The position numbers and the translations under genes were made by a program. From NCBI GenBank assembly GCA_958352145.1, contig CATWNM010000001.1:69524-133523 (forward strand): a stretch of DNA of 64,000 nt, written 5' to 3'. This DNA is from an uncultured Eubacteriales bacterium (GTDB taxonomy: Bacteria > Bacillota > Clostridia > Oscillospirales > CAG-272). A model generated the notes under the pieces. It had not been told where the DNA came from and did not search any database. It saw nothing but the letters and a program-made list of their open reading frames with translations. Shown piece after piece: positions 2,406 through 35,784 of this stretch; positions within the stretch are counted from its first letter, which is position 1; the number at the start of each line of letters is the position of its first letter.

Positions 2406-4589
2406 TTACTCCATCATGCCCATAAAGGCATACATGCCGCTACTGGAGGCAAACAGATCGATTTCCGAATAAGAAAGTGAAATTCCCACAAGTCCGGTAT
2501 AATTTTCAGCGTTGTCCGCGATCTTCGCGCCCTCTTCGAGACCGGTCACGGCCACATAAATCCCGTCGCTCACGCCACACTTTACAGGTATGCGAGCGAG
2601 CATCACCGTGCCGTCATCATTTTCCGTCACGGTCAAAATAAAGCTGCCGTCCGCCTCATACAGCACCGCGCTTTCCGGAACGGCAAGCGCGCCGGGCGTT
2701 TCCGCCACAACATAGGAAAGCCGCGCGCTGACGCCGATGCGAAGCAAATTTTCAGAATCGGCCACACGTACGACCGTCTCAAATTCAGCGTCGTTTGTAG
2801 ACATGACGGAGCCAGTTGCATCCTTTTTCGCCGTCGGCGCAACCGATTCAATCACGCCAGTATATTCCGCGTCGCCCGAGGCGTCGGATTTAATAATGAC
2901 TTTCATCCCCTCGTGCACCCGATCGAGATCATAGGCTTTGATCGTAGAGGTGACGACCAAATTTTCCGTATCCTCGATCACGAACATCACGCCCGTAATG
3001 CTTTCGCCTTTCGTCGCATAGACGGCGGTGACCGTACCCGAGATCGGCGCGGTTACAGTCGTTTTGCCGAGATCCTCATACAGATTGGCAAGCTGATAAT
3101 CGGAAAGCGCGGTGTTCGCACTGTTCTTTGCGCTCTCATAGGACAAGCGGTAGGACTCAAGCTGCTGGTCGGCCGATATTTTAGCATTCTCCAGATTAAC
3201 GGACGCCGTGTCCAGCGCGCGCTTTGCGCTGCTTAAAGCGGTCTCGTATCCCTCAAGCTGCTTATCCACGCTTTCCAACGTGCTTTCATAATTATCCTTG
3301 GCATTTTGCAGCGCCGTCTCATAGGAGTCCAGCGTGTCATTCAGCGTATCCAGCACATTGTCATAGTTATCCTTCGCATTTTCATACTGCGTCAGATACC
3401 CTTTGAGCGTCGCGTCCGCCGCGCGGCAAGCGGCGCCATATGCTTCGTCTGCCTGTCCATAACGATCTGCGAGAGAAGCCTCGCTCTCAGAAAGGGCAGA
3501 CAGCGTACTTTCAGCCTTTTCGATGCTCTGATTCAGCTGATCTACCGTTTGTTCAAGCTCACCGATCCGCTGTTCCAACTCAGCAATGCGGACTGCGTCC
3601 GGCTCCGGCGCCGCGCTCACCTCCGCCAGTTCCGCCTGTTTCAGCGAAAGCTCGGCCTGCGCCGTTTCTAATTGTTTTTGCTGCGCGCTCAGCGCGCCCT
3701 CGGCGTTTTCGGTCTTCTCACGCGCGGCCATATACGCATTATACGCATTGTCCAAATTTGCCGAAGCGGTGTACAGTTCGGTCGTTTCGTCGTCTTTTAC
3801 CCATTCTTTATAATCTTCATACGTTTCTTTCGCATTGTCCAGCGCTTTCTGCGCACTTTTGATCTGCGCGTGCGTCTTATTGTCGATATCCGACTTCAGA
3901 TCATCATACTTTTTCTGCGCGTCTTCCACCGCGCGCTTTGCGCTGTTGAGGGCGATCATCGTTTCGCCCTCTATTTTTTCCGCGTACTCGTCATAATCTT
4001 TCTGCGCATTTTCAAAGCTTACCAGCGCATTGTCATAGCTGCTTTGCGCGCTGACAACACCGGAACTCGTCCCGTTCTCCATCTGCGAAAGCATCGTTTC
4101 GTAGTTCAGCTTCGCAGAGGCAAGGTTCAGCGCCGCGGTGCGTTCAGACGAAGTCATCGAAAGCTCGCGCTCGCGGATCTGCCGGTCCAGCGTCTCCGTT
4201 TCATATACGCAAAGAATATCGCCGGCCTCGACCCGGTCACCGAGGGACACGTTTACCTCAGCGATTTTATAGGCCAGCGTAGAATACACTTTCACCGTCG
4301 TATCCTCGGCGCTCTTAACAAGCCCCGTCGCGCTGACCGTGTCCTGAATATCGCGCGTACCGACTGTATATACATCCCCGCGATAAATTGAAGTGCCGAT
4401 ACCCGCCTTTTTCAAAAGCATCGGCGGCACAATCAATACCGCAGCAGCAATCAGGATCAATATGACAAGCACAACCCATATTTTCCGGCGCTTTTTTCGT
4501 TTTTTCCGAACTTTCTTCTGTGCCGGTTGCGCCTTTTTGTTCACCGGTTCCGGACTTTTTTCCGATTCCGTCGTTTCTATGTCAGCCAT
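2406..4589 (-). CDS. HlyD-family membrane-fusion/adaptor protein with very long coiled coil
   Basis: The ORF is open to 4694, but GGAGG-N6-ATG at 4587-4589 (MADIETTE...) is the likely start. K/R-rich tail plus one TM, lipoyl-like motif GDRVEAGDILCVYE, several hundred residues of A/E/K/D/L-rich heptad sequence, and a C-terminal beta-barrel region. Confidence 0.85.
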   Translation of the reverse strand: MADIETTESEKSPEPVNKKAQPAQKKVRKKRKKRRKIWVVLVILILIAAAVLIVPPMLLKKAGIGTSIYRGDVYTVGTRDIQDTVSATGLVKSAEDTTVKVYSTLAYKIAEVNVSLGDRVEAGDILCVYETETLDRQIRERELSMTSSERTAALNLASAKLNYETMLSQMENGTSSGVVSAQSSYDNALVSFENAQKDYDEYAEKIEGETMIALNSAKRAVEDAQKKYDDLKSDIDNKTHAQIKSAQKALDNAKETYEDYKEWVKDDETTELYTASANLDNAYNAYMAAREKTENAEGALSAQQKQLETAQAELSLKQAELAEVSAAPEPDAVRIAELEQRIGELEQTVDQLNQSIEKAESTLSALSESEASLADRYGQADEAYGAACRAADATLKGYLTQYENAKDNYDNVLDTLNDTLDSYETALQNAKDNYESTLESVDKQLEGYETALSSAKRALDTASVNLENAKISADQQLESYRLSYESAKNSANTALSDYQLANLYEDLGKTTVTAPISGTVTAVYATKGESITGVMFVIEDTENLVVTSTIKAYDLDRVHEGMKVIIKSDASGDAEYTGVIESVAPTAKKDATGSVMSTNDAEFETVVRVADSENLLRIGVSARLSYVVAETPGALAVPESAVLYEADGSFILTVTENDDGTVMLARIPVKCGVSDGIYVAVTGLEEGAKIADNAENYTGLVGISLSYSEIDLFASSSGMYAFMGMME

Positions 4590-28595: not shown

Positions 28596-31500
28596 TCAGT
28601 GTTTTACCCATGACTCGTATCCGTTCCCTTTGCGAATATACGCATGGCTGTTGGTTGCTTCCTGCACCGCAAGATAGTACCATGCAACGGAATCCGCGTT
28701 ATCCGGCCAAAGGATCATACCGTCCAGCAAATCGTCGGCCGTCTCGGGAATACGCTGCAAAACGCGGTTGACCATCGCCATAGCCTCCGCTCTCGTAATA
28801 CGCCGTTCCGGTCTAAACGTGCCGTCTTCATAACCGAGAATCCATCCGTTGTTCGCAGCGGCGCTGATTTCCTTTTGAGCCCAATGGCCGTAAATGTCGG
28901 TAAACGCACTGCCAGAGAATTCCGAGTTAGAATCAAATCTCGCGGCGATCGCAGCGAATTCCGCGCGCGTAATCGCATTGTTCGGATAGTACCTGCCGTC
29001 ATAACCCCTGACTGCGCCCAAAGCGGCCATTGTGGAAACCGCGGTGTTATACCAAGCGGCTTTCGGCACGTCGGCAAACGAATTTTCCTCCGTCATATAC
29101 CGCTGCCGCGCTTCGTCTGAAAGAAGCCGGAAAAAAATCGTCGCAACCTCCGCGCGCGTAATATTCGCCTCAGGACGAATAAGCCCATCTGGGTATCCCA
29201 CAATATAAGCACGGTGCTCGTCTGCAAACAGACTCGGGACGTCGCTCTTTTGATTGGTTACGGTCAAACGAACGGTCTGACCGTTTCTAACGGTGAATGG
29301 ATGCAGAGCCGTATCCAATACATATCCCTCCGCGGCGCGCGTCTCAACGAAATAATACGCCCCGGCGGCAAGCTTATTTACACGAATGGTTCCCTGCTGA
29401 TCCGTAATATAAGTGCCGATTTTTGACGCGCCTGTTTTATACAGTTCAAAGATCACGCCGGACAGCACTGTAGAAGTATCCGAAAGATCCGTTTTAGTAA
29501 GAACGACGCTTCCTGTTTTCGGAATAATCGGCGGGTTCCTATGTTGTTTCCACTGCGCAGTAAGCGTAATATCGCCGGTTATCGGCGATGCGAAGTCATA
29601 CGCCGCGCCGTCCGAATACCAGCCGGAAAAATCGTAGCCTTTGCGGGAAGGCGCGACGGGCTGCGACACCATATCCCCTTCGACTACCGTTACCAAAGTC
29701 GCTGTTCCCTCATCCAGCACGCCTCCGTTCGCGTCAAATTTGACGGTATACCGATTTAAAACGATCATATCCGTCTCAACAATATTGCCGGGAATATAAA
29801 CGGAGCGGCCGCCAAGCGAGGCGCGCACATTGCCGGAAGTATACAAAACGCCGTCCGCGGTCAAACAATCCGCAGGAAGCGTGGCGGTAAACTGAGACGT
29901 CAATTCACTTAAGGTAATTTCGATTTCCGTAACGCGCTCCGTCAGCTTCTTGTCAGGAACCAGCGTAACGGTCAGACCGGACAAAGTCTCTCCCGCGTCG
30001 ATCAAGCTCAGCAAATTTTGAGAGGGCGTAAACACAGCCGTATAAACAATCTCATAATTCTCCGCGCCTTCCGCTTCGGTAATCGTAGCGGGTGCAGTGA
30101 GCGTCAAAAGTCCGTAGAAGTCCGTAGGCTGAATCAGCGCGACTGCGCAGCCGTATGTAAAGTCCCCGGGAACCGCAAGTACAATTCCATCATCCGTAAC
30201 CGCCGTGCTGTAGAACGCACATTCCGCGTCCTCGGCGGGCATCCCCTGTTCGTCCGTCTCCAGCACGGCCGCATAAACAGGCAGAGATGCGTTTACGTTC
30301 TGCAGCCCCTTGACTATCAGTTTAGCCGCGCCATGACGCTGCATCCAGAAAGAGGCCAAAACGCCGCCCCAGCCTTTAGCGTCGGCCGCGTTATTGATCG
30401 CCTCAATACTGCTGCCGGCGGCATTTCCAAGCTTTATATCAAAGCTGCCTGCCGCGGGCGTTACTGTTTTAGCGTCGGCCGCGAAATAAACGCCCCAGTC
30501 GCCGACGGAAGCGCCGTCGGCAATCAGCAGACAGCGTTCAGATTGGCTGAAATACGACGCCGAAACCGCAATATCATTGGATGCGTTTTTCGCGGTATTA
30601 TCAGACACCGTACCGCCCAGAAGCTCAACGCGGGGATCAAGGCCGTGATAAGGCTGCGCTTCATACGCAATACCGCCTCCGTATGCGGCGGAGACGTTAT
30701 CCGTAATTCGGCCGCCGTTCATGATAAAAATACCGCCGCGGCGTACAAAGACTCCGCCTCCTTCCATTCCTGCGGTATTGCAGGAAATGGTGCCGCCGTT
30801 CATCACAAAGGTGCCGCAGCTCACCATGATTCCGCCGCCGGTTTGATCGGAATGATTTCCGATAATCTCAGCGCCGTCATACATCGTAACGAGATGACCG
30901 GCAAAGTTATTCGCCATTGCGATCGCGCCGCCGCGGTCGCTGTTGGTATTGTCATTGATTTTCCCGTAAATATCCAGCACGCCATCCGGCGCCTGGATAT
31001 AGATAGCGCCATACCAGCACGTGTTGCCGTGAATATATCCGGAAGCGCCGATTTTACAGTACTTATTGCCCTCTCCGGACATTTGCACAACATGTCCGCC
31101 GCGGGTATACCCGGTGATCTCCCCGTTCATATACAGCGAGCCGGAAGTAATATTCACACCATTTTTCCCGCCGCGGAGCACCGAGCCGCCATCCATAGTA
31201 AATTGGCTACCATCGTTGATAATATCAACGGCAAATCCGTCGTTCGGCAGGTCTAAAATCCTGCCCGTGGAAGTCAAAACCACGGACGCGCCGTTTCTTA
31301 CGTGAACCGCAACGCCGGAATTTCCCCACCACATGCTGACATCTTCTTTAATTTGAGAAATTACGCCGCTGATATCGGCCGTACCGCCGTCCATATAGAT
31401 CGCGCGGCCAACCGCGCCGCAAATCTTCGACCCTTCTTCCATCGTAACGGCGCCCCCCTGCGACCAGACTGCGCCAGCCGCGCCGTAGTCAGCTTTATTT

Positions 31501-32204
31501 TTGACACGATCCACAGCGATGGTATCCTCAATCAAGCTGCCGGATTCCATAGTCAGCGTTCCGCCCGACACACGCACGGCAGACATACCGCCAAAGTTGC
31601 GCAGTACGGCTCCGTCTCCAAGGCAAATATCGGCAACGCCGTTATAGGTTGCGACCATAGCATCCGGAACAATGTCAGTATTGGAAAGAACATTTCCTTT
31701 TGTATCCACCGTATTGCCGTCTCCATCGCTTTCGGCCTGCAGAAAACGGGAACCCTCGCGCAGTCCGGCGTCGTCCAAAATGATATTTTCAAGCCGCAGA
31801 AAAGCCGACGGCTTATCGTTCGTTTGGCCGCCGACTTCAATCATTGCAGGATTATATGTGCTTCGCGCCGGATCCTGCTGACACTCAAAATCAGAACCGC
31901 GCGTAATCGTAAACGGACCTCCTTCGCCGCTGGCAATAGTCAGAGCCTTATCATAGTAACGGGCGCACCGCGTTACGGTAAGATCGCTCATGACATAAAT
32001 CGTCGCGCCGTCGGGCGCCTCTGTCACCGCTCGGCTCAGCGTGGCGTAGGGCTTGTCTTTCGTTCCGTCGCCGGCCGCGTCATCCCCGTCTGCCGATATA
32101 TAAACTGCCGGCGCGGCGTCCGTATCGGCTGCAAACGTTACAGCGGGCAAAATCCCCGCTGCAAAAATGCAAGCGAACAAAAACATTAGCATTTTCTTCT
32201 TCAT
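28596..32204 (-). CDS. Large cell-surface protein: signal peptide, right-handed beta-helix-like repeats, Listeria-Bacteroides (Flg_new) repeat, SpaA/Cna-B-like domain, three C-terminal SLH domains
   Basis: 1202 aa. Signal peptide MKKKMLMFLFACIFAAGILPAVTFA. Many G-rich GG.I/GGA repeats. YTVKFDANGG...GYDFSGWY at ~29540-29755. VVLTKTD...GVIFELY...YYFVETRAAEGY at ~29250-29520. SLH motifs (F.D....W....I......G...GY.DG.FRP...ITRAE) at ~28600-29240. AGGAGG SD at 32211-32217. Confidence 0.85.
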   Translation of the reverse strand: MKKKMLMFLFACIFAAGILPAVTFAADTDAAPAVYISADGDDAAGDGTKDKPYATLSRAVTEAPDGATIYVMSDLTVTRCARYYDKALTIASGEGGPFTITRGSDFECQQDPARSTYNPAMIEVGGQTNDKPSAFLRLENIILDDAGLREGSRFLQAESDGDGNTVDTKGNVLSNTDIVPDAMVATYNGVADICLGDGAVLRNFGGMSAVRVSGGTLTMESGSLIEDTIAVDRVKNKADYGAAGAVWSQGGAVTMEEGSKICGAVGRAIYMDGGTADISGVISQIKEDVSMWWGNSGVAVHVRNGASVVLTSTGRILDLPNDGFAVDIINDGSQFTMDGGSVLRGGKNGVNITSGSLYMNGEITGYTRGGHVVQMSGEGNKYCKIGASGYIHGNTCWYGAIYIQAPDGVLDIYGKINDNTNSDRGGAIAMANNFAGHLVTMYDGAEIIGNHSDQTGGGIMVSCGTFVMNGGTISCNTAGMEGGGVFVRRGGIFIMNGGRITDNVSAAYGGGIAYEAQPYHGLDPRVELLGGTVSDNTAKNASNDIAVSASYFSQSERCLLIADGASVGDWGVYFAADAKTVTPAAGSFDIKLGNAAGSSIEAINNAADAKGWGGVLASFWMQRHGAAKLIVKGLQNVNASLPVYAAVLETDEQGMPAEDAECAFYSTAVTDDGIVLAVPGDFTYGCAVALIQPTDFYGLLTLTAPATITEAEGAENYEIVYTAVFTPSQNLLSLIDAGETLSGLTVTLVPDKKLTERVTEIEITLSELTSQFTATLPADCLTADGVLYTSGNVRASLGGRSVYIPGNIVETDMIVLNRYTVKFDANGGVLDEGTATLVTVVEGDMVSQPVAPSRKGYDFSGWYSDGAAYDFASPITGDITLTAQWKQHRNPPIIPKTGSVVLTKTDLSDTSTVLSGVIFELYKTGASKIGTYITDQQGTIRVNKLAAGAYYFVETRAAEGYVLDTALHPFTVRNGQTVRLTVTNQKSDVPSLFADEHRAYIVGYPDGLIRPEANITRAEVATIFFRLLSDEARQRYMTEENSFADVPKAAWYNTAVSTMAALGAVRGYDGRYYPNNAITRAEFAAIAARFDSNSEFSGSAFTDIYGHWAQKEISAAANNGWILGYEDGTFRPERRITRAEAMAMVNRVLQRIPETADDLLDGMILWPDNADSVAWYYLAVQEATNSHAYIRKGNGYESWVKH

Positions 32205-32219
32205 CCAAATACCTCCTGA

Positions 32220-32245
32220 CTACAGAAACGTGTACTTTTCTAGCC
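32220..32245. repeat. Candidate recombination site L (degenerate 12-2-12 site, core GT)
   Basis: CTACAGAAACGT-GT-ACTTTTCTAGCC. The arms match the reverse complement of site R at 9/12 and 7/12. The core is the reverse complement of the R core. Confidence 0.55.
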
Positions 32246-32300
32246 TTACATTATTTGGAAATTCAGCGTTGAAGTTCACAATTATTTTACAAATTATGTA

Positions 32301-32329
32301 TTGAACCTTTAGCTAAACGATGTTATAAT
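32301..32329 (+). promoter_or_regulatory. Near-consensus extended -10 promoter inside the candidate invertible segment
   Basis: TTGAAC (32301-32306), 17-nt spacer, TGtTATAAT (-10 at 32324-32329). It points rightward, away from the surface-protein gene and into the antisense of the recombinase gene. Confidence 0.6.
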
Positions 32330-32355
32330 GCTAACGTTAATAGACCAGAACGGAT

Positions 32356-32381
32356 TTACAAAAAAGTACACTTTTTTGTAA
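32356..32381. repeat. Candidate recombination site R (perfect 12-2-12 palindrome, core AC)
   Basis: TTACAAAAAAGT-AC-ACTTTTTTGTAA. The two 12-bp arms are exact reverse complements. Lies 10 bp from the recombinase stop codon. Confidence 0.65.
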
Positions 32382-32390
32382 TATGCTGGT

Positions 32391-33014
<624 letters not shown>

Positions 33015-33224
33015 TTAAACTCATATCGCAATATGCCCTCTTTCCGCCTCACCTTTTCAAGAAACAAAAAAGCAGGCACTATGGCTCGTGACCGCTTGCC
33101 ACGCGTTCATGTAAGCAAAAAGCGTTCCCCGCCACAGAGGCGTGCAGAGAAAACGGGAATATCCCTTTTATATCTTTTTGCAACAATGCCAAAATCTATT
33201 ATAGTCCAGAAAAGAAAAAAATAT

Positions 33225-33254
33225 GGGGTACTCAGCGATCAAGCTAAGTACCCC
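33225..33254. terminator. Terminator after the 806-aa binding-protein gene
   Basis: GGGGTACTCAGC-6 nt-GCTAAGTACCCC with T-runs on both strands. Confidence 0.6.
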
Positions 33255-33363
33255 TCTTATTTTTTATGGTTCTATCCGGTAAATTCCGGATCTCACGATG
33301 TTTGTGCGTTCCCGCATTGCAGCTGCCTTTTTCGGCGCGCCGCCGTTTTGTTCGCTTAAATAG

Positions 33364-35784
33364 TTACCTGGATTCGCCGATATAAATCTGCACCCGGTTT
33401 TCAATCAGCGACGCGACCTCGTCCGCGCTCTTCTTTCCCGCAAAATACGCGGACGCCTCCTCGCTCACAATATTAAACACATTCTCATTGTAAATCAACT
33501 GTTTGTGTACGCTGGTTGCAATCTCCGCAATCCGCTCCACATCCTCGACAGTCATATCTCTACGATCATTATTATAACTCGGTTCAGAGATGATAGTGCC
33601 GCTCGCCGTAACAACCACGGCTTCCGAATCGCGCGGCATAACGTCGGTCTCGGAATCCGCATCCTGCTTCGCTGCTTCACGCTCTTTGATCGCATCCAAA
33701 GCAGCCTGCTTCTGCTTTTCCAATCCGGCCTTGGTTACCGAAAACGCCCAGTTGTCTTCGGTTTGGTATTCCTCTGTAAAGAACAGCTTGACAAAATTCC
33801 AAGCTTCATCAGCCATCGGACTCTTTGCACTGATGAGGAATTTCAGGTTGGAGCAGGTAAAGACAAGCCCGTCGCGGTCAGGCGAAGGCATGCCGACAAA
33901 TTCCAGTTCCATTCCGCCAAAGTTATAGGACTGATTTTCAAAAGCGTAAAAAGAATCAAGCGAAGTCATTTCTGCGATTGCCTTGCCCTCTTTAAACGCA
34001 TTATTATAAGCATCCCAGTCAAAGTCTTCATAATTGAAATTTTCATCTTCCCACCGGGTCTTCTCGGGCAGTGTATTGACATATTCCAAAATCGCCTTAA
34101 AATCGTCGTTATTAAAACTGCATTTTCCAGTCGCCGTATCGATGAAATTCGTATAATTCAGATAAAAAAGCATCTGAAGCATATTCGCTCTGGAAACCTC
34201 ACCCTCACGGAAGAAAGACACCCCCTCAGGCAACGCGGCTACTTTCGCGGCAAATTCGGGAATGGTCAGATTGGCAAATTCGCTGATCTTATCCTTGCCG
34301 CCCATGAGTCCCATCACATAGAAACCCGTAGGAATCTCATACAGCTTTCCGCCAATTTCACAGGCTTTAAGAATGTTGGTCAAAAAGTCATCCTTGGAAA
34401 ATTCCGGATCCTTTTCCAAATATGTATACAGATCTGCAAAGAGTCCCTTGTTGACATACCTGGACACGGAGAACTCCGAATCGGAAATAATGACGTCCGG
34501 AACATTGCCGGCCAGAATATCATCGTTTAATTTCGTCTTGCCCGCCGTATAATCCTCGTCGGTATTATACTGAGAATAGTCCACATATTTGATCCGGTAT
34601 TCTTCGCTGGCAAGGTTGAACTTTACGATCTGCTCCTGGAAATTATATGCATATCCTGCCGACGCAACCGTAATCAGATATTTTGGCGTAAGCTCGCTGT
34701 CCGGTACCTTTTCAAAGGTATTCATGTACAGCGTGGTCTTGTTATCCTTATATTCGCGCGTCAGCGAAGCAAAACGGTCGCCGTCCAGCGCATAAAAATT
34801 GCCGTAGTTATAAATATAATCGGAATTGATATAATTCATCAATTCAGTCTGGACACCGGTATCGAGGTCCACTTTGTAAATGCCATAGTTATCTGAATAA
34901 TACGCGGCGCCGTCACCGCCGAACGAATTGTAATTGAAACGATATCCAAGATCGCCGGTATCGACCTCCGACTGTGCGCCGGTTTCCAGATTATAACGCT
35001 TGCAGGTGGTTGTGTAGGAATTCGAGTTATAATTCTCATACACATAGAGAAGTTCGGAATCGCCAATAAAATAAATATTATTGATATATCCTTCCTCGCC
35101 CTCCGGCATCAGCGCATACGTATTTTTTATCGTGCCGTCCGTTCCAAAACAAATCAATTTGTTGCTGTATTCTTCTTTGTTCGTATCGCATATAAAATAC
35201 AGATCTTTTCCGTCCGTCAGCGATGTATTCACATAAAAATAAGAATCTTCTCCTGTGATATCAAACGCTTTTTTCAAATCCACCATGCCGGTTCCATTTC
35301 CGGAAAAGTCATAAAAATACAGATAATAATTCTGATCATAAATATAATTTTCAGAATCAATTAACGTACTTGTTTGAATAAATACAGCAAGACCGTCGTC
35401 CAACACCAGCATATTATCCATATAAGAATGATGCTGTTCATCATTCGGCAAATCGATGGGAATTTCCTTAACCTCTTCGCTGCCATAAGTCCCAATATGT
35501 GCAACGGTGGACGTCGTTTCATAATCCTTATTCACGCTTTGAAGCACGTAGCAGTAACCGTTTTTCCCGAGCGAGTTGTTGGATAAATACGTATATCCCT
35601 GAAACTCTTCCTCGTTTGACCAATCCGGCTCTTCTACCGTCACAAGCTTGGTTTGATTGTACTTATACACATGATCGACCACTTGTTTTTCAGGCATCTT
35701 TTCCCTGCCACCGCAAGCGGCCAAAGCCGAAAGCGCCAGCAATGTGGCCAATACAAAGCTAATTGCCCTCATCGTTTTTTTCAT
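33364..35784 (-). CDS. Large extracellular solute-binding lipoprotein (extra N-terminal domain plus family-1 SBP domain)
   Basis: 806 aa. Lipoprotein signal MKKTMRAISFVLATLLALSALAACG. The C-terminal half is SBP-like (...GNVPDVIISDSEF...GKLYEIPTGFYVMGLMG...). Confidence 0.8.
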   Translation of the reverse strand: MKKTMRAISFVLATLLALSALAACGGREKMPEKQVVDHVYKYNQTKLVTVEEPDWSNEEEFQGYTYLSNNSLGKNGYCYVLQSVNKDYETTSTVAHIGTYGSEEVKEIPIDLPNDEQHHSYMDNMLVLDDGLAVFIQTSTLIDSENYIYDQNYYLYFYDFSGNGTGMVDLKKAFDITGEDSYFYVNTSLTDGKDLYFICDTNKEEYSNKLICFGTDGTIKNTYALMPEGEEGYINNIYFIGDSELLYVYENYNSNSYTTTCKRYNLETGAQSEVDTGDLGYRFNYNSFGGDGAAYYSDNYGIYKVDLDTGVQTELMNYINSDYIYNYGNFYALDGDRFASLTREYKDNKTTLYMNTFEKVPDSELTPKYLITVASAGYAYNFQEQIVKFNLASEEYRIKYVDYSQYNTDEDYTAGKTKLNDDILAGNVPDVIISDSEFSVSRYVNKGLFADLYTYLEKDPEFSKDDFLTNILKACEIGGKLYEIPTGFYVMGLMGGKDKISEFANLTIPEFAAKVAALPEGVSFFREGEVSRANMLQMLFYLNYTNFIDTATGKCSFNNDDFKAILEYVNTLPEKTRWEDENFNYEDFDWDAYNNAFKEGKAIAEMTSLDSFYAFENQSYNFGGMELEFVGMPSPDRDGLVFTCSNLKFLISAKSPMADEAWNFVKLFFTEEYQTEDNWAFSVTKAGLEKQKQAALDAIKEREAAKQDADSETDVMPRDSEAVVVTASGTIISEPSYNNDRRDMTVEDVERIAEIATSVHKQLIYNENVFNIVSEEASAYFAGKKSADEVASLIENRVQIYIGESR

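Follow-up and report, generated by a model that had tools for sequence, protein, structure and literature searches.

Promoters inverted by serine recombinases have been familiar since the discovery of Hin, and a switch of this kind is not in itself new. The small serine recombinases share a common mechanism in which a dimer binds each site, consisting of two half-sites of 12 base pairs (bp) about a 2-bp centre (12-2-12), two such sites synapse as a tetramer, both are cut at the central dinucleotide with overhangs of 2 nucleotides (nt), and the half-sites are then rotated and religated. Sites of 12-2-12 type with an asymmetric 2-bp core typify these enzymes, and in inverted sites the asymmetry of the core permits inversion only. 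Inversion by members of the Hin family needs a Fis-bound recombinational enhancer, typically located inside the invertase gene, and the hix half-site of that system reads TTATCAAAAACC. The present study concerns a locus of related layout in a 64-kb stretch of DNA (64,000 nt of contig CATWNM010000001.1, assembly GCA_958352145.1, hereafter the window) from an uncultured Eubacteriales bacterium, in which a short segment bearing a predicted promoter separates a small serine recombinase gene from the gene for a surface protein with SLH domains. Public assemblies establish that this locus inverts at its two cores in natural populations of both the source organism and its relatives, and it is very probably a promoter-inversion phase-variation switch. 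The study adds documentation of both states from public data, and places the locus in a large and regular family of cassettes in gut Clostridia. The relevant features, in window coordinates and with lengths of proteins in amino acids (aa), are as follows.

32356–32381: site R, or proximal site (P), a perfect 12-2-12 palindrome, TTACAAAAAAGT-AC-ACTTTTTTGTAA, with its core at 32368–32369
32220–32245: site L, or distal site (D), CTACAGAAACGT-GT-ACTTTTCTAGCC, with its core at 32232–32233, inverted relative to R
32234–32367: invertible segment, the 134 bp between the core dinucleotides, and precisely the segment found reverse-complemented in a contig otherwise identical to the window (L211, 199/199)
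32301–32329, plus strand: predicted extended −10 promoter, TTGAAC-17-TGtTATAAT, on the segment
32212–32217, minus strand: Shine-Dalgarno (SD) sequence AGGAGG of the surface gene, in fixed DNA between L and the ATG
28596–32204, minus strand: SLH surface-protein gene, 1,202 aa, with its ATG at 32202–32204
32391–32996, minus strand: small serine recombinase gene, 201 aa, TTG start, outside the invertible segment; the presumed invertase

With the Hin/hix system of Salmonella, and the Gin, Cin and Pin systems allied to it, the locus has in common a small serine recombinase, inverted 26-bp sites of 12-2-12 layout with an asymmetric 2-bp core, A-tract-rich half-sites (here TTACAAAAAAGT), and a promoter on the invertible segment that is here predicted to control a gene for a surface structure. 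It differs in that the recombinase gene lies outside the segment, in that the segment measures 134 bp as opposed to about 1 kb, and in having GT rather than AA/WW as the core; a Fis/enhancer element was not identifiable here, an enhancer not being recognisable from sequence. Furthermore, the enzyme is nearer to Sin/Bin3 (104.6 bits by phmmer against the PDB) and gamma-delta resolvase (78.6 bits) than to Gin (69.4 bits), with Tn3 resolvase also placed ahead of Gin. Sin/Bin3 (Tn552) and the beta-type resolvases of Firmicute plasmids accordingly provide the best sequence matches, with identical SIDRLGRNY and YxRVS motifs, but the sites of the present locus are inverted, its outcome is inversion rather than resolution, accessory site II was not found in the window, and the context is a conserved chromosomal one rather than that of a plasmid or transposon. 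Mpi of Bacteroides fragilis, which serves the PSA-PSH capsule loci, resembles the present enzyme as a serine recombinase encoded outside short promoter segments (about 200 bp for Mpi) in a gut commensal, with surface structures as the controlled product. However, Mpi is a single global enzyme with many dispersed sites, whereas here each cassette has its own recombinase, in this case 9 nt from its site; the phylum also differs, and a score of 50.2 bits with the NCBIfam Mpi model NF009949 (cutoff 272) rules out membership of the Mpi family.

Among the Clostridia themselves, the RecV-dependent cwpV and flgB switches of Clostridioides difficile are likewise invertible regulatory segments upstream of cell-wall or surface genes, cwpV being governed by formation of a terminator in the leader and not by promoter orientation. 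The same likeness extends to Clostridia inverton group 139 (PMC11892184), but both that group and the RecV switches deploy tyrosine recombinases and unrelated inverted repeats. Gut inverton surveys that include Clostridia have been published (PMC11892184, PMC11602134), and in the part of that literature consulted here the Clostridia group characterised, group 139 (PMC11892184), is the one linked to tyrosine recombinases. No description of a serine-recombinase cassette family was found in the literature searched, the supplementary tables of the surveys, including 'group 125' (PMC11892184), lying outside that search; it is possible that the family is already catalogued there as group 125.

The evidence for inversion came from short Logan contigs, gathered by way of the surface protein and closely similar alleles of it, each of which was compared both with the window as it stands and with a version in which 32234–32367 had been inverted in silico. 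One of these (L211, Logan ERR15648929_11618) was identical at 199 of 199 positions to the flipped sequence, from the 3' end of the recombinase gene to the ATG of the surface gene, and holds both recombinant junctions, TTACAAAAAAGT-GT-ACTTTTCTAGCC and TTACAAAAAAGT-AC-ACGTTTCTGTAG. A second (L193, SRR32733125) starts with AGACCAGAACGGAT-TTACAAAAAAGT-AC-ACGTTTCTGTAG-TCAGGAGG...ATG, which is the junction of the flipped (ON) state comprising the R inner arm, AC, the L outer arm, the SD sequence and the ATG. The crossover could thereby be mapped to the 10 bp common to both sites, AAAAGT-AC-AC, which include the central dinucleotide. The orientation of the window (OFF) was assembled in approximately 22 distinct samples, as against one full ON contig and one ON-junction contig. 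Flipped copies surfaced only in look-ups made with the surface protein and its alleles; the look-up with the exact recombinase protein returned ten contigs from ten samples, each of them in the window orientation. The original prediction, made from the letters of the window, had proposed phase-variation inversion about the cores and had recommended mapping reads to both orientations; public contigs contain both orientations and bear out the inversion.

The ends of several contigs proved equally informative. Logan assemblies use k=31, and the starts of three contigs (L204, L213, L215) coincide with the first 31-mer unique to the OFF junction, that of L193 with the first 31-mer unique to the ON junction, and those of two others (L208, L209) with the first shared base at which the two junctions converge. 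These six starts thus occupy assembly-graph bubble positions, and therefore indicate that both orientations were present within single samples. Two further contigs, at the end of L200 (Logan ERR13612756) and the start of L212 (ENA ERZ27247017), break inside the proximal site at GTGTAC, 4 nt before the OFF and ON paths diverge; because the break is 4 nt short of the divergence point, inversion between L and R does not by itself explain it, and the near-perfect palindrome may be its cause. The flipped junction gave no matches in the JGI metagenome_contigs and genome_contigs collections, and a pattern allowing either orientation also gave none in JGI, nulls that are uninformative on inversion because that collection lacks the source organism. 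A scan of GTDB representatives yielded no copy of the recombinase locus more than 85% identical.

Closer inspection of the two sites confirmed the architecture that had been predicted for them. An inverted-repeat search showed the 12-nt arms of R to be 100% complementary, and R is indeed a 12-2-12 site with an asymmetric core; L and R together form an inverted repeat of 19 nt at 89%, and L has the anticipated inverted layout, with arm matches by eye of 9/12 and 7/12 and a GT core that is the reverse complement of the AC core of R, 136 bp away core to core. The motif AAAAGT-NN-ACTTTT, allowing at most one mismatch, occurs twice in the 64 kb, at exactly L and R, where 0.15 matches would be expected. 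When scored with half-sites derived from the family described below, R was the sole top match in the window and L tied for second place with two unrelated sites, among which only L sits at the family-typical 136 bp with a matching inverted core. The site scan revealed no third or accessory site in the 64-kb window, which likewise contains no second copy of the recombinase, and an Rfam scan of 31500–33500 found no known RNA element, its only hit being a chance snoRNA-like match (E = 0.22). The SD sequence and ATG of the surface gene fall within 15 nt to the left of L, just where they had been placed, and the recombinase gene is present as foreseen, although its stop codon proved to be 9 nt rather than 10 bp from R.

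The promoter anticipated in the 110 bp between the sites was also found, with TTGAAC at 32301–32306, a 17-nt spacer and TG-t-TATAAT at 32321–32329, matching the consensus at 10 of 12 positions with the additional TG. A promoter scan identified it as the only strong promoter-like site in the region, the other strand of the segment offering a weak match only (8–9 as opposed to 12–13 on an ad-hoc score). As had been claimed, in the window it faces away from the surface gene, and it is aimed at the 3' end of the recombinase gene with the P site alone between them, an orientation now known to be that of the majority of samples. After in-silico inversion, its −10 element ends 67 nt before the ATG of the surface gene with a predicted 5' untranslated region of about 60 nt, in agreement with the distance of about 60 nt first proposed. 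The window state is read as OFF because no comparable promoter-like site faces the surface gene, and in the flipped state the predicted promoter should drive expression of the SLH surface protein (ON).

The protein itself, of 1,202 aa, comprises a signal peptide, Flg_new and SpaA domains and three SLH domains by Pfam. Its N-terminal 810 aa have no Pfam match even at E ≤ 5, and the 'beta-helix' label attached to it in the original prediction is to that extent without support; matches to WD40-repeat sequences in the PDB, with zero significant stretches, look spurious. The surface gene also differs across samples (L002, L005, L007): there are alleles of 1,107 and 1,223 aa, and in one assembly the gene is broken into two parts of 282 and 853 aa.

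The 201-aa recombinase was assigned to PF00239 (Resolvase; E = 1.7e-30), and its closest solved structure was Sin/Bin3 (2r0q; E = 5e-29 by PDB phmmer), with which the catalytic motifs YxRVS and SIDRLGRNY align. The best annotated relatives were 'res' proteins of Bacillus, Enterococcus and Staphylococcus plasmids at 53–56% identity. With plasmid 'res' proteins as nearest annotated relatives, and with Sin and the resolvases scoring above Gin, membership of the Hin family is ruled out, so that the term 'hix-like', initially applied to the locus, holds for the inverted 12-2-12 layout of its sites and fails for any kinship of the enzyme with Hin, Gin, Cin or Pin. A reading of the locus as a res or resolution site is similarly ruled out by the inverted sites, the inversion product, the conserved chromosomal context and the absence of any further site in 64 kb.

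Relatives of the recombinase at 50–80% identity are common in gut viral contigs (L091–L165 from IMG/VR, and MT835780.1, L166), but a downstream site pair was present at none of 69 scorable viral loci. The viral loci double as a negative control on the site scan and as an indication that the sites belong to the clade of the window recombinase; the viral enzymes appear to be a sister clade whose role is different. Recombinase gene and P site are closely linked throughout the family, and the adjacent enzyme is the presumed catalyst of the inversion.

A scan of one genome per species gave more than 560 loci with a relative of the recombinase, from which the best 80 were kept, 74 of them scorable. 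The best 80 derive from Lachnospiraceae, Oscillospiraceae and other gut Clostridia, with recombinases 74–85% identical to that of the window, and 50 of the 74 scorable loci share the layout of a P site after the stop codon plus a partner D site. The P site starts 8–16 nt after the stop codon, mostly 9–11 nt, and conforms to the consensus TTACAGRAAnGT-GT-ACnTTYCTGTAA, the core being GT in nearly all cases and that of the partner D site AC. Nucleotide homology among members extends from the start codon of the recombinase gene to the inner edge of the P site, and no conserved DNA was found across the family upstream of that start codon. Between the sites lies a homologous promoter block, TTGAAA or TGGAAA, 17 nt, and TGnTATAAT, which faces the recombinase (OFF) at 31 loci and the downstream gene (ON) at 8. 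In both orientations the end of the −10 element lies 24–28 bp from the nearer site, a constancy that is as predicted for inversion of an asymmetric segment.

The distance between cores is 134–139 bp in 30 loci (136 bp in the window), with a median of 137 bp for this main class, and minor classes have medians of 104, 115.5, 127, 147, 169 and 241 bp. In ascending order, the medians 104, 115.5, 127, 137, 147, 169 and 241 bp correspond to 9.9, 11.0, 12.1, 13.05, 14.0, 16.1 and 22.95 in units of a 10.5-bp helical turn. With each distinct spacing value entered once, a Rayleigh test gave r = 0.67 and p ~ 3e-4, with a best period of 10.5–10.7 bp, which suggests that the DNA between the sites, about 136 bp, is looped tightly and that the two sites have to lie on the same face of the loop.

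Inversion is also evident by comparison between family members. The flanks of the locus in Merdimonas faecis BR31 (L048) are 93–97% identical to those in two Lachnospiraceae metagenome-assembled genomes (MAGs; L036, L050), whereas the interiors are 86–90% identical only after one has been reverse-complemented, and 63% in direct comparison. At a locus with recombinases 80–81% identical to that of the window (P0043, P0025), contigs with identical flanks were recovered across samples in both orientations, 8 OFF and 8 ON, and one further contig ends at the P core.

The open reading frame (ORF) downstream of the D site usually starts 8–42 nt after it, mostly with an SD sequence. Surface cargo includes SLH, Sel1, BspA-type LRR, collagen-like and TadZ proteins together with capsule and glycosyltransferase genes, and defence cargo includes DNA methylase, restriction/PLD, SNF2 helicase and STAND NTPase genes, a typical phase-variable repertoire.

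Several members depart from the common form. Four loci (L040, L067, L035, L091) have a solitary proximal site or its outer half only, the family homology stopping right after the GT core, and seem to have arisen either through deletion or through recombination with a remote or pseudo site. In three (L082, L088, L144) the core of each site is AT, a palindromic dinucleotide that should impose no directionality on a serine recombinase. Four others (L023, L024, L028, L033), on contigs binned as 'Bacteroides sp. CAG:545', Lachnospiraceae, Megasphaera and Fusicatenibacter, have almost the same inverton and downstream sequence, reflecting either an element moving between taxa or mis-binning. Some genomes hold more than one cassette or recombinase copy: L083 and L086 come from a single MAG, and in L089 two recombinase genes (1737–2309 and 3159–3758) lie about 850 bp apart, only the second of which has a clear site pair, at 169 bp.

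The palindromic P site can form a hairpin whose predicted stability depends on the orientation of the segment. When RNAfold was applied in pairs to the observed and in-silico flipped states of 36 family loci, the mean energy was −15.7 kcal/mol in the OFF state and −10.2 kcal/mol in the ON state, the OFF hairpin thus being about 5.5 kcal/mol more stable; it was stronger by at least 5 kcal/mol in 17 of the 36, and no locus showed a weakening of that size (Wilcoxon p = 2e-4). The window itself gave −13.5 kcal/mol OFF (z = −3.8) and −3.0 kcal/mol ON, the hairpin (32340–32400, minus strand) being lengthened by flanking ACCAG...CTGGT in the OFF orientation only. Because the T-runs after P are equal in both states, the hairpin is not called a terminator. 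In conjunction with the antisense OFF promoter, it could favour the OFF state or protect the target gene against read-through.

These data can be accommodated in the following scheme. Recombinase dimers would bind the two 26-bp sites, R (P) 9 nt after the stop codon of their own gene and L (D) 15 nt before the ATG of the surface gene, and the sites would synapse over a tight 136-bp loop of 13 helical turns, a looped synapse suggested by the spacing data, to which the A/T-rich interior may contribute, perhaps with an HU-type protein. Both sites would then be cut at the central GT/AC dinucleotide, and rotation and religation of the half-sites would reverse the 134-bp segment. The near-invariant GT/AC cores, the exact junctions and the geometry are consistent with the serine-recombinase mechanism. 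The segment would carry one strong extended −10 promoter placed off-centre, about 26 bp from one end, such that in the window state it would fire antisense into the 3' end of the recombinase gene with the surface gene OFF, and in the flipped state would lie about 67 nt upstream of the ATG with the SLH surface protein ON.

Various considerations weigh against this interpretation of the locus as a switch for the surface gene, or limit it. The deduction of mixed populations from contig ends presupposes k=31 for the Logan assemblies, and the strong dominance of OFF (approximately 22 samples against 1 + 1) implies that switching may be rare or biased. The link between recombinase and sites is known by co-occurrence, with which an enzyme acting in trans is compatible, and the promoter assignment is a prediction from the consensus match and conservation in the family. 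Even with the segment OFF, read-through from the recombinase gene could sustain a basal level of surface-gene expression, the P hairpin amounting to −13.5 kcal/mol only and having no U-tract. One alternative is that the inversion is real but that its main output is control of the recombinase, through antisense RNA and the extended P hairpin in the OFF state, with control of the surface gene secondary or absent. The promoter of the majority state does run straight into the 3' end of the recombinase gene with the P site alone between, and the OFF hairpin is the stronger across the 36 loci as well as in the window; but most loci have an SD-bearing ORF a few tens of nt past D, the cargo consists of typical phase-variable surface and defence genes, and the flipped promoter lands at a normal distance from the downstream gene. 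As an alternative this is considered unlikely, and, being compatible with a surface-gene switch, it serves better as an added layer.

It is considerably less likely again that the segment is flipped by a recombinase encoded elsewhere, a master invertase like Mpi, with the adjacent gene a bystander or the resolvase of a mobile element. The adjacent enzyme is the presumed catalyst, the genome is visible over 64 kb only, and certain genomes contain several family copies (L083 and L086 in one MAG, two copies in L089), all of which leaves room for such an enzyme; however, in about 50 loci spread over many taxa P starts 8–16 nt beyond the stop codon of this recombinase, nucleotide homology covers the gene and P site as a single unit, the related viral recombinases have the sites at 0 of 69 loci, and a 12-2-12 architecture with a 2-bp asymmetric core is of small-serine-recombinase type. 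Hardly credible at all is the proposition that there is no switch, R being a terminator or operator palindrome, or res site I of a plasmid or transposon resolvase, and the likeness of L to it being due to chance. A palindrome immediately after the stop codon that folds at −13.5 kcal/mol, an enzyme whose nearest relatives are Sin and plasmid 'res' resolvases, and an L site that ties with two chance sites in the window on half-site score would each be in keeping with it, but the flipped copies of the exact locus (L211, L193) already refute it. Moreover, L is at the family-specific distance with an inverted core, the sites are inverted and not direct, no third or accessory site was found in the window, and every assembly shows the same chromosomal surroundings, free of adjacent plasmid or transposon genes. 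A chance inverted repeat is ruled out by the same flipped copies and by the family-specific distance with inverted core.

Beyond the promoter-inversion switch at this one locus, a broader proposition is put forward tentatively, as one nearly as likely to hold as to fail: that the locus represents a self-contained, horizontally spreading 'plug-in' cassette that has been placed before hundreds of surface, capsule, pilus and anti-phage genes in gut Clostridia, and that has its own rules of spacing and OFF bias. The parts of such a cassette would be a Sin-clade serine recombinase, a P site within an orientation-dependent hairpin, a 13-turn invertible promoter and a D site, and its hosts Lachnospiraceae, Oscillospiraceae and contigs binned as Megasphaera, with recombinases still 74–85% identical. 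Spacing quantised in helical turns would reflect a tightly looped synapse needing no Fis, and the antisense promoter plus completed hairpin at the 3' end of the recombinase gene would build in an OFF bias.

If the switch operates as proposed, a lineage of uncultured gut Clostridia that recurs in dozens of metagenomes could turn a 1,202-aa SLH-anchored surface protein on and off, and the switching of surface proteins bears on adhesion, phage sensitivity and immune recognition. The more than 560 matches among species-representative genomes fall in dominant gut Firmicute families, in which inverton biology is far less studied than in Bacteroides. As a result of the fixed geometry (P usually 9–11 nt past the stop codon, about 136 bp core to core, and the −10 element 26 bp from a site), members are easily annotated from sequence, sites of family type being sought with the pattern TTACAGRAANGT-GT-ACNTTYCTGTAA. 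An enzyme of about 200 aa with a substrate of about 160 bp is also a candidate minimal genetic switch for the engineering of Clostridia.

Upstream of the recombinase gene, a strong terminator-like hairpin (33225–33254, minus strand), with a 12-bp stem containing 7 GC pairs and followed by a T-run, is located after a gene for a solute-binding protein (33364–35784), and the minus strand between this hairpin and the TTG start disclosed no promoter-like site that could serve the recombinase gene. In one sample (L004, ERZ28634777, 238–2633) the same 806-aa solute-binding-protein gene was called as ORFs of 201 and 581 aa, a split that is probably due to a frameshift or nonsense variant.

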